Virus record (IMG/VR): IMGVR_UViG_2703718786_000001
Location: 1 to 7,907 of that record
DNA length: 7,907 nucleotides
Reading direction: 5' to 3' (one strand)
Origin: a virus
Lineage: Monodnaviria; Loebvirae; Hofneiviricota; Faserviricetes; Tubulavirales
The position numbers and the translations under genes are program-made. Shown piece by piece: positions 1,316 through 7,907 of the stretch. Every line of letters begins with the position of its first letter. Within the stretch, counting starts at the first letter, position 1. The notes beneath the pieces are model-generated. The model made no database searches, was not told the origin of the DNA, and saw only the letters and a list, made by a program, of their open reading frames with translations.

Positions 1316-2443
1316 TTAAGCAACAAGATATAGTTCTGCTTTACGCTCACGATAAAAATCTGGTTTCACAACAACATCATTAAACTCAATTTCTTTAATT
1401 TCTCTGATGATGACGCCAGGAAACAGAGAAACATTGTATTCCCGCGCGATGTCTATACCAATTTTACGAAGTCTTGCCCGATGCTCTTTAATCTGCCTTT
1501 TAGATAAATCAAACCGTTCACCATTAGCCCATGAATACGCATAAAAAGCAGTTGTATGCGCAGCCCTGACAGTGTCAACTATCTTTTTCTCTAAAAGTTC
1601 TGAAGCAACACTTTTCACATCCATAGTAGAAGGTCTCGTTTTTTTATGTATATCAACAAACTCATTTAATAAAGGATATAACTCACCTTCAAAATCAGCA
1701 TAACCCCAGTCAGTAAGATTCTGTTTCTTCAAAAAGCGTCTTTTTAATTTCAGTTCAAACCTGATTACACCATATATAAGCAGGAACTCATACAATTTCT
1801 GGAGGTAGCGATATTCTTCACTATCAGTACCAAATTTTTTCTCTGTCTTTTTCATTGAATGGATAAGGAGATCATGACTTTTATTATAAATACTTGGATA
1901 CATGTAATTAACTTTCCCCCCATCCGTCATAAAATCAGCAGTCTGACCATTAGGTCGTAGATTTCCATTCATACGACGAAAAGTCAGCATAGAAAGCGCA
2001 CGTATTACGCTGTTTTCATTGCCCGGACCAACAGCAATATTTCTGTTCACGTGTGTCTCAATGACCTGAGCGCCATCCCATACATGACCGCAGTAAGAAC
2101 CATCTGCACATTGACGAAGTTTTCGTCGACGACCTTTGGTAAACTCCGGCAGCCCAAGCGAGCGTAAGATCTGGTTAAAAACACCAAAACATTCATCCAC
2201 TGAGGCACATCCAAAAACGTTATCCAGCTTTCCCCACCGAGACGGATTACCGGACATTGTCAGTTCAGAACCACGAATTTTGATAGAAACAACGTCACTG
2301 AAAGATCCTTCATGAACAAAAACAGGTTGAGAAAGAGAAGAAACTTCCCCCGTTTCAAGGTGTATGCGCTGATAACCCACATTACTGATGTGGGGCAGTT
2401 CAAAACCAAAGTCCTGCCGAGCTTTCAACCAGTCAAAATTCAT
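1316..2443 (-). CDS. Rolling-circle replication initiation protein (pII/RstA-like)
   Basis: Large ORF with similarity to Ff pII by memory (GKLDNVFG versus GHNVFG; NEN and NGQT motifs). The start is set at ATG 2443 (MNFDW...) because a consensus sigma70 promoter lies just upstream. The longer tracked start at 2551 (MLRCNF..., 411 aa) is also possible and gives a better N-terminal length match to Ff pII. Confidence 0.75.
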   Translation of the reverse strand: MNFDWLKARQDFGFELPHISNVGYQRIHLETGEVSSLSQPVFVHEGSFSDVVSIKIRGSELTMSGNPSRWGKLDNVFGCASVDECFGVFNQILRSLGLPEFTKGRRRKLRQCADGSYCGHVWDGAQVIETHVNRNIAVGPGNENSVIRALSMLTFRRMNGNLRPNGQTADFMTDGGKVNYMYPSIYNKSHDLLIHSMKKTEKKFGTDSEEYRYLQKLYEFLLIYGVIRFELKLKRRFLKKQNLTDWGYADFEGELYPLLNEFVDIHKKTRPSTMDVKSVASELLEKKIVDTVRAAHTTAFYAYSWANGERFDLSKRQIKEHRARLRKIGIDIAREYNVSLFPGVIIREIKEIEFNDVVVKPDFYRERKAELYLVA

Positions 2444-2467
2444 AAAACGAACATGAAAAAGATATGC

Positions 2468-2524
2468 GTAACCATAGATGTTACTATAAGAACATTGCCA
2501 TGTTACTGTCAATACAAATGTTAC
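2468..2524. promoter_or_regulatory. Operator-like repeats in the divergent control region
   Basis: ATGTTAC occurs three times on the plus strand (2478-2484, 2500-2506, 2518-2524), with small inverted repeats gtaac-N7-gttac (2468-2484) and aacat-tgcc-atgtt (2491-2504). The repeats overlap the spacer and -10 region of the putative rep promoter. Confidence 0.35.
2483..2512 (-). promoter_or_regulatory. Candidate sigma70 promoter for the replication gene
   Basis: On the minus strand: TTGACA (plus 2512-2507), an 18-nt spacer, then TATAGT (plus 2488-2483). Predicted transcription start is near 2475, about 30 nt upstream of ATG 2443. Confidence 0.5.
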
Positions 2525-2581
2525 GTAGCAAGTGAAGTTACACCGCAACATAATATGGAAAAAGACGAAGGGAACAAAAAT

Positions 2582-2857
2582 ATGAAATGGTTAGAAGATT
2601 ACATAGATGAGCTAAAAGAGAGGTTAAAACTGCAAAGCGATTATGCAACAGCACAATATCTCGGAATACCAAGGCAAAGTATGACAAAAATAAGAAATAA
2701 TACGGCTTTAATTGGACATGATAAGTGCCTGAAAATAGCCAATGCTTTAAAAATAGACCCTGTTGAAATCATAGCCACTGTCAATGCCCAAAAGGAAAAG
2801 GACAAGGATCTAAAGGCAATGTGGATTCGACTAGCAAAAGAGAAAGGGAATCAGTAA
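2582..2857 (+). CDS. Helix-turn-helix transcriptional regulator (putative phage repressor, Xre/CI-like), 91 aa
   Basis: The only convincing plus-strand gene. ATG at 2582 with purine-rich GAAGGGA upstream. HTH-like segment QSDYATAQYLGIPRQSMTKIRNN. Divergent from the rep gene as rstR is from rstA in CTXphi. The tracked ORF start at 2312 overlaps rep and is rejected. Confidence 0.65.
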   Translation: MKWLEDYIDELKERLKLQSDYATAQYLGIPRQSMTKIRNNTALIGHDKCLKIANALKIDPVEIIATVNAQKEKDKDLKAMWIRLAKEKGNQ

Positions 2858-2858
2858 A

Positions 2859-2876
2859 AGTGCGGGAAACCGCACT
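2859..2876. other. Short hairpin directly after the regulator stop codon
   Basis: agtgcgg-GAAA-ccgcact, a 7-bp stem with a GNRA-type loop. It is followed by a T-run only on the minus strand, so the direction of any terminator function is unclear. Confidence 0.3.
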
Positions 2877-2878
2877 AA

Positions 2879-3207
<329 letters not shown>

Positions 3208-3250
3208 TTATAGCAGTTATCGATAAGACAAAAAGATGCCCCGTTAAAAG

Positions 3251-3346
3251 CAGTGCGTACAAGAGCGTTATGTGTAAATCGGGCGCGGCGATCGCCATTT
3301 TCGCCGCACCCGATTCAACATAACGGCATATACCTTATACGCACTG
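3251..3346. other. Structured element B: second copy of the dif-like forked hairpin
   Basis: Outer stem cagtgcgta (3251-3259) pairs with tacgcactg (3338-3346); the outer-stem changes relative to element A are compensatory (c to t on the left, g to a on the right). Inner 14-bp stem 3278-3291/3301-3314 has one mismatch. Minus-strand arm AGTGCGTATAA-GGTATA-tgccg-TTATGTTGAAT (plus 3313-3345) matches dif at 9/11, 5/6 and 10/11 positions, with a 5-nt insertion. Confidence 0.55.
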
Positions 3347-3614
3347 CAATGAGATGCGGTAAAAACAGACTGAAAGCGACACCGACCCTCACCAGAACGC
3401 TGTAAATCATCAATTCCATCAACATGCCACATCAATGCATGGACGACTCACGCCTTGCGTCGTTCGTCTCGCTGACTGCCCGTTTAAAGGCGGTCTGGCA
3501 GGCGGCGCGTTGCGCTGTCTCCTGCTGCTCTGTCATCTCTCACTGGCTTCGGCGGGCTGACAGCTGCGTCACATGAAACATCATCATGCCGCCTTCCATG
3601 CCGCTGGCGCGGCA

Positions 3615-6245: not shown

Positions 6246-7865
<1,620 letters not shown>

Positions 7866-7907
7866 AACCACCCCCAAAATAACAATGTTGCGAAAATCAC
7901 GGTCAGC

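Follow-up and report, generated by a model that had tools for sequence, protein, structure and literature searches.

The segment at positions 2444-2877 of the window, by which we mean the whole 7907-nt stretch of DNA analysed here, is best read as an inovirus repressor-operator immunity switch of a known kind, one that resembles the switch of CTXphi, the cholera-toxin phage of Vibrio cholerae, in its logic but is not a member of the CTXphi family. It comprises an array of GTTAC boxes, two divergent promoters (P_rep, for the replication gene rep, and a predicted P_reg, for a regulator gene), the gene for a 91-aa helix-turn-helix (HTH) protein and a hairpin. Judging from the sequence and its conservation, we put at about 80% the probability that the HTH protein acts on the GTTAC boxes and controls P_rep.

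The window looks like a complete, circularly permuted inovirus genome (an E. coli-type filamentous phage). Its minus strand carries a gpII-type rep gene (2443-1316), a gene for an ssDNA-binding protein, small coat-like ORFs, a pIII-like ORF, a DUF2523 (pVI-like) gene, zot and a secretin gene; the sole convincing plus-strand gene in the window encodes the 91-aa HTH protein (2582-2857). A megablast search of the phage collection found no close relatives of the whole window. The pIII-like ORF (6246-7877, minus strand) contains a long run of Gly-Thr dipeptides that stems from a simple DNA repeat at about 6600-6800. Given that the length of this ORF differs between E. coli relatives (1614 versus 1656 nt), the run is likely a length-variable linker. 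Elsewhere, two palindromic modules of about 100 nt each (3108-3207 and 3243-3346) hold dif-like sequences with XerC and XerD arms, in direct as well as inverted orientation; one of these, at 3110-3136, is AGTGCGCACAATGGCGTTATGTGTAAA. The E. coli dif itself was not found in the window, even with up to three mismatches allowed. In both E. coli prophages examined (L001 and L002) the alignment to the window begins at 3389, and relatives form tandem arrays.

The rep gene (1316-2443, minus strand) encodes a 375-aa rolling-circle initiator of the gpII/G2P type and is the first gene of a long minus-strand phage operon. Rep matches the Pfam family G2P_X_C (1.2e-19) and phrog_702 (5e-73), has a weak match to Phage_CRI, and is 47% identical to its equivalent in phage If1. 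Its start at 2443, from which the protein begins MNFDW..., is as given in the initial annotation of this DNA; an in-frame upstream start at 2551 was rejected because the extension is not conserved in homologs. An 11-codon minus-strand ORF, which runs from 2475 to a TGA overlapping the rep ATG, was likewise dismissed as a leader peptide, since it is not kept in L018 or L006. On the minus strand, the sequence ahead of the rep ATG (2444-2460, ...CATGTTCGTTTTATG) contains no recognisable Shine-Dalgarno sequence, and rep may be translated weakly in itself or depend on coupling to something else.

Upstream of rep, a minus-strand promoter consisting of TTGACA, an 18-nt spacer and TATAGT had been proposed, and it is borne out at 2512-2483, with its -35 at 2507-2512 and its -10 at 2483-2488 (both on the minus strand). 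With 11 of 12 sigma-70 matches, P_rep is the best site in the window, where no other site exceeds 10/12. In each of the nine aligned loci, too, the highest-scoring minus-strand promoter lies at this position, with 10-11 matches out of 12 and a spacer of 17-18 nt. The -35 is TTGACA in eight of the nine and TTGACG in the ninth; the -10, found at the same place in homologs, reads TATAGT, TATCGT, TACAGT, TATATT or TAGATT, so that T1, A2 and T6 are kept. A conserved -35 combined with variable inner -10 bases is the pattern expected of a working promoter.

The 138-base spacer between rep and the regulator gene contains four direct copies of GTTAC (starting at 2480, 2502, 2520 and 2537), one inverted copy and a GAAC element. 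Box 1 (GTAAC, the inverted GTTAC, minus strand, 2468-2472) is invariant in 9/9 aligned loci and stands 7 or 8 nt from box 2 (GTTAC, plus strand, 2480-2484). In the window the two form GTAAC-N7-GTTAC across the predicted P_rep start site, at about 2476; box 2, which is found in all homolog spacers, overlaps the final two bases of the P_rep -10. The GAAC element (plus strand, 2490-2493) lies inside the P_rep spacer, is invariant in sequence and is always 12 nt before box 3 in all loci; it is possibly a degenerate left half-site. The remaining boxes are all on the plus strand: box 3 (GTTAC, 2502-2506) is invariant and abuts the P_rep -35, box 4 (GTTACGT, 2520-2526) is always 18 nt after box 3 and spans seven consecutive invariant columns, and box 5 (GTTAC, 2537-2541), also invariant, follows box 4 by 17-18 nt within the predicted P_reg spacer.

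The initial annotation had described this array as three ATGTTAC repeats with two short inverted repeats. The three repeats do exist, at 2478, 2500 and 2518, but the conserved core is GTTAC and the 'AT' prefix is lineage-specific; the list had also left out the fourth direct copy (2537-2541), the inverted GTAAC (2468-2472) and the invariant GAAC (2490-2493). Among inverted repeats, GTAAC-N7-GTTAC (2468-2484) is meaningful, but the others amount to a 71% palindrome around TACGTA and a 7-nt pair set 111 nt apart. GTTAC is not enriched over the whole window (15 sites versus 11.8 expected). Five of the 15 sites nevertheless fall within 74 nt; when 15 sites were placed at random 200,000 times, such clustering was reached with a frequency of 7e-5. 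The GTTAC copies at 2888 and 2934 sit in a junction that is shared with cassettes of unrelated regulators, and hence were rejected as specific targets.

We compared the contigs of ten clusters of homologs (60-100% identical) found by a protein search with the regulator; a back-translated peptide scan of the genome contig collection found no relatives of it. Wherever the upstream flank is present, the homolog is divergent from an inovirus rep gene. Nine loci, with regulators 63-99% identical and representing about six independent lineages, were aligned (the window, L003, L018, L005, L006, L007, L009, L013 and L015), and the array was also found in L008 and in L023 (Aeromonas salmonicida, regulator 67%). 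Across the nine sequences, 40 of the 138 spacer columns are invariant, with five runs of at least five columns, and none of 100,000 column shuffles reached these runs. The invariant islands are GTAAC, GTTAC, GAAC, GTTAC followed by nGTCAA, GTTACGT, GTTAC, and the A2, A4 and T6 of the plus-strand -10. Mean pairwise identity is 0.96 for box columns, 0.84 for promoter hexamers and 0.46 elsewhere in the spacer. By the measure of this alignment, the spacer is confirmed as a real, conserved control region, in which promoter and boxes form conserved islands within diverged sequence.

The regulator gene (2582-2857, plus strand) encodes a 91-aa protein of the XRE/Cro type and is preceded by a purine-rich ribosome-binding site at about 2567-2573. 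The ATG at 2582 had been proposed as its start, and homologs share a conserved N-terminus, M[KR]W[FL]. In-frame upstream starts at 2555 and 2453 were rejected, as their extensions are not conserved in homologs. Public annotations over-extend the protein: PGAP gives 100 aa from the ATG equivalent to 2555, and other callers give 134-135 aa. Given this N-terminus, and given that the predicted P_reg start, at about 2561, lies downstream of the 2555 ATG, 2582 is supported as the start codon.

The Pfam models HTH_3, HTH_19 and HTH_26 score 17-19 bits against the regulator, below their gathering cut-offs of 22-30; phrog_4441 (6e-19) and phrog_638 (1e-17), annotated as HTH and transcriptional regulator, match strongly, and no curated NCBIfam or Pfam family covers the protein. 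An AlphaFold2 model built from the nine-sequence alignment (pLDDT 82) has six helices and shows the five-helix, lambda-repressor-like fold with an HTH that defines XRE/Cro-C1 proteins. The best Foldseek matches are 434 Cro, the N-terminal domain of P22 c2 and C.AhdI, with a probability of 1.0 and E-values of only 0.02-0.1. The 91 residues are all helical, and a C-terminal S24 peptidase or oligomerisation domain is absent. In the model, the helix at 31-38 (RQSMTKIR) is likely the recognition helix; it is nearly invariant among homologs that keep the GTTAC boxes, and resembles the QQS start of the 434 helix. In L016 (Spartinivicinus ruber CP048878.1, 4719-5000) the regulator is 60% identical and the helix reads RQAISKLR; the facing Rep is of a different family (Phage_GPA), and no GTTAC array was found in the 282-nt spacer. 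This one case hints that recognition helix and box co-vary. The region upstream of Burkholderia phage phiE12-2 gp24 (39% identical) has other repeats and no GTTAC array.

A weaker plus-strand -10, CATAAT at 2549-2554, had been noted earlier as a candidate for driving the regulator gene; it holds up as part of P_reg (2526-2554, plus strand), a predicted weak promoter with TAGCAA as its -35 (2526-2531), a 17-nt spacer and 8 of 12 matches. P_reg is found at the same relative position in seven of nine loci and is not found there in the other two; A2, A4 and T6 of its -10 are invariant.

From this arrangement we infer that the 91-aa protein would bind as a repressor to the GTTAC boxes, which tile 2468-2541. 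Boxes 1 and 2 cover the P_rep start, box 2 the -10, GAAC and box 3 the spacer, and box 3 the flank of the -35, so that occupied boxes would exclude RNA polymerase. With rep shut off, the co-oriented downstream phage genes and rolling-circle replication would be silenced as well. Because boxes 4 and 5 overlap the -35 and the spacer of P_reg, the protein would also limit its own synthesis, which makes negative autoregulation of this weak promoter probable. In one possible layout, four adjoining operators of 17-18 bp (2468-2484, 2489-2506, 2508-2524 and 2525-2541) would each take one dimer, every operator pairing an invariant GTTAC right half with a GTAAC-like left half (GTAAC, aGAAC, GTCAA or GTAGC). 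The left half-sites were identified post hoc and one of them is the -35 itself, and binding to direct repeats is a possible alternative. The N7 or N8 between boxes 1 and 2 and the distances of 22, 18 and 17 nt between the direct boxes do not all fit any single rigid dimer geometry. As for induction, no peptidase domain, LexA box or antirepressor gene is visible in the sequence; the best candidate LexA site has 5/8 core bases of CTGT-N8-ACAG.

The same layout might serve a different purpose, in which the protein, as a Cro-like or copy-control modulator or by activating its own promoter, tunes rep during chronic productive infection without conferring immunity. The protein is small (91 aa) with 434 Cro as its best structural match, and the cassette has neither a second regulator nor an SOS link, all of which would suit such a role. 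Furthermore, the predicted P_reg start has a box centred about 45 nt upstream of it, from which P_reg could be activated, and Pf4r, the repressor of an inovirus, does auto-activate its own expression (PMC7379572). However, no core element of P_rep is left uncovered by the boxes, and this favours repression whatever the biological role; diversity of cassette types beside a conserved rep is a signature of heteroimmunity (PMC11509585), and the relatives are tandem prophages in E. coli chromosomes. We thus regard a purely modulatory role as unlikely, and prefer a repressor that confers immunity.

The question of which protein the boxes belong to can be addressed by loci in which Rep and the regulator have parted company. 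E. coli JNE112863 encodes a Rep with 96.8% identity across all 375 residues. Its DNA matches the window (96%) as far as the rep ATG, where the match breaks off precisely at 2443, and again from 2878 onward. In the intervening segment it has another spacer, in which the GTTAC array is missing, and a 110-aa HTH gene that is unrelated. The reverse is also seen. The full array and a regulator homolog are kept in L009 and L010, whose Reps give only chance-level BLASTP matches to that of the window (E about 1), in L008 and L013, whose Reps give no BLASTP match to it, and in L005, whose Rep is a classic Phage_CRI protein. Given a near-identical Rep without the array and dissimilar Reps with it, we conclude that the boxes belong to the regulator and not to Rep.

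This bears directly on the proposal that the GTTAC repeats serve the plus-strand replication origin as iterons to which Rep binds. On the minus (viral) strand, GTTCTTATAGTAAC...GGTTAC resembles the Ff nick region, GTTCTTTAATAGTGGAC, with the gpII-binding repeats behind it, and it was this likeness that led us to test the origin reading. The motif is on the viral-sense strand just upstream of rep, and the rep module changes as one block against the structural genes, so the origin is expected in or near the module. A nearly identical Rep beside a spacer that lacks the array argues the opposite, as do Reps without detectable similarity that keep it: GAAC and the GTTAC boxes follow the regulator, and the repeats do not co-vary with the initiator. 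We take this natural Rep swap to rule the proposal out and assign it next to no probability; since the boxes belong to the regulator, they are putative operators.

A search with the boxes alone is consistent with this linkage. The box-only DNA pattern has 18 specified bases, so that mostly chance matches were expected, and three collections (viral, genome and metagenome) gave 17 matches at 14-15 distinct sites. The full array is present in three of the 17, and only those three encode an adjoining regulator homolog. One of the three lies in a prophage fragment of Aeromonas salmonicida ATCC 33658 (L023, NZ_LSGW01000083.1), in which positions 1-700 hold the complete array and a 67% identical regulator. 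The 230 nt upstream contain dif-like sequences and no rep gene, and the site is apparently near the contig start; an orphan cassette, the end of a prophage or a break in the assembly could each account for this.

It is also very improbable that the boxes are sites for a host factor, or that the HTH protein is an antitoxin-type regulator, with the array serving something other than control of rep by a phage-encoded protein. The antitoxins HigA and PezA are among the weak structural and sequence matches of the protein, and some homologs have an overlapping downstream ORF. In the window, however, no ORF partner lies downstream of the regulator, and the toxin-antitoxin version was ruled out for want of such a partner gene. 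Nor would a host factor be expected from an array that is cassette-specific, that recurs in phages of E. coli, Aeromonas and assorted metagenomes, and that is gone where the regulator has been swapped. Control of P_rep by the phage's own regulator accordingly stays our preferred reading of the boxes.

The right end of the exchanged segment is marked by two features. Directly after the regulator stop, a hairpin, GUGCGGG-AAAC-CCGCAC (2859-2876, plus strand; -12.9 kcal/mol, z = -3.2), is a probable terminator or stabiliser; the other three cassettes each have their own hairpin at the same place, with both arms changed. Beyond it, 2878-2916 (ATCGGGTGTAACAGAACTCCCGAACCGCTGCGCGGT) is nearly invariant behind four different regulator cassettes, beside Reps only 55% identical. 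Candidate roles for this stretch, which holds two small hairpins, are those of a recombination junction, an origin element and a terminator. Given the hairpin and the common junction, 2444-2877 is a discrete unit, which can be described as an exchangeable immunity cassette of operators, two promoters, regulator gene and hairpin.

Exchange is also evident on a larger scale. Tandem prophages in 165 E. coli genomes match the structural half of the window at about 90% identity, and those roughly 165 genomes with shared structural genes have different rep and regulator modules. The rep-spacer-regulator segment was found in just one complete E. coli genome, that of strain 504211 (94.6% over 2380-2900). 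This strain shares an ssb-rep-spacer-regulator block with the window (96% identity to 944-2916), joined to a different structural module: its secretin region matches weakly (about 73%), and its remaining structural genes have no DNA match to the window. By these comparisons, the window genome is a mosaic in nested units. A bolder version of our reading holds the cassette to be a portable single-protein bistable switch, made of four adjoining asymmetric operators, two back-to-back promoters, a repressor gene and a terminator hairpin, that would move whole between inoviruses with unrelated Reps via two fixed junctions (the rep start codon and 2878-2916), with neither a Cro partner nor an SOS input. 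We offer this version tentatively and consider it rather doubtful as a whole.

Taken together, our results provide a concrete map of putative operators for a repressor family, so far uncharacterised, that occurs in inoviruses of enterobacteria, Aeromonas and the environment. They show that filamentous phages exchange immunity cassettes at junctions precise to the base pair and do so independently of Rep, and heteroimmunity through such shuffling would help explain how tandem filamentous prophages coexist in E. coli chromosomes. A repressor/promoter pair as compact as this could also serve as a reusable genetic part. None of this alters the general view of control in temperate filamentous phages, and the finding would not surprise a specialist; what the window adds is an unusually clear natural swap and a clean operator map.

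Small, reverse-oriented HTH genes are known from several inovirus replication modules, namely ORF15 of phiRSM3, ORF13 of phiRSS0, the XRE proteins of phiLf and phiSHP2, and YPO2273 of YpfPhi, and a role for their products in repression or immunity has been proposed (PMC3816273, PMC4266046). For YPO2273 the regulatory role 'awaits experimental demonstration' (PMC4266046), and operators for phiRSM ORF15, phiRSS ORF13 and YPO2273 are not defined in these papers (PMC3816273, PMC4266046). In tblastn searches, inovirus proteins of Ralstonia, Xanthomonas and Stenotrophomonas are 25-28% identical to the regulator (Ralstonia 25%), and the phiRSM3, phiRSS0, phiLf and phiSHP2 proteins are only distant relatives of it.

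The lambdoid phages offer a parallel in design. The OR operators of 434, P22 and lambda, and those of the C-proteins of restriction-modification systems, are served by the same HTH fold and likewise consist of adjoining operators of about 17 bp that span back-to-back divergent promoters. Lambdoid phages, however, use two proteins, Cro and CI, whereas the cassette has a single protein with no RecA-cleavable domain. Its operators, if palindromic, would also differ in having one invariant and one degenerate half, and the target here is the rolling-circle rep gene of an ssDNA phage.

Among filamentous phages, Pf4r is an inovirus immunity repressor that, as a dimer, acts on repeats within a region of divergent promoters (PMC8402870, PMC7379572), and binding to non-palindromic or direct repeats has been described for Pf4r and P2 C (PMC8402870). 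Direct repeats are present here too, although the Pf4 repeats are GGGGAAATA and ours are GTTAC. Pf4r faces an excisionase gene and not rep (PMC7379572); Rep of Pf4 (PA0727) is controlled indirectly via XisF4, whereas here the regulator gene faces rep itself. A search of PDB sequences with the 91-aa protein (E <= 10) gave three matches, 3kxa and two designed proteins, and the best 50 fold matches are Cro, c2 and C-protein types, with no Pf4r or P2 C chain recognised among them by name.

The closest comparison is with CTXphi, whose rstR/rstA switch the initial annotation had invoked as a model. P_rstA of CTXphi is co-repressed by LexA, whereas the cassette has no LexA box, and no gene for an RstC-type antirepressor was seen in the window. 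RstA has no similarity to the Rep encoded here, which is of the Pfam G2P type, and ig-2 has no GTTAC array. RstR (112 aa) is 31% identical to the regulator over 59 aa, confined to the HTH (pairwise E of 0.002), a similarity that is generic; CTXphi, though present in the phage collection, is not among the 37 tblastn matches to the regulator at E <= 0.01. The cassette is thus an analogue of the CTXphi switch and not its homolog. The likeness that stands is one of layout and logic: conserved islands, boxes that travel with the regulator and an exchangeable cassette. In CTXphi, as here, a small HTH gene (rstR) diverges from the replication gene (rstA) across a spacer of about 125-140 nt that contains the rep promoter. 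The palindromic dif-like modules at 3108-3207 and 3243-3346 resemble the folded single-strand attP of CTXphi, and dif-like sites and tandem prophages of relatives are common to both systems. Finally, allele-specific RstR represses the rstA promoter in ig-2, and the diversity of rstR and ig-2 gives rise to type-specific immunity (PMC11509585); repressor and spacer vary there as a cassette beside a conserved rep, just as they do between E. coli JNE112863 and the window.
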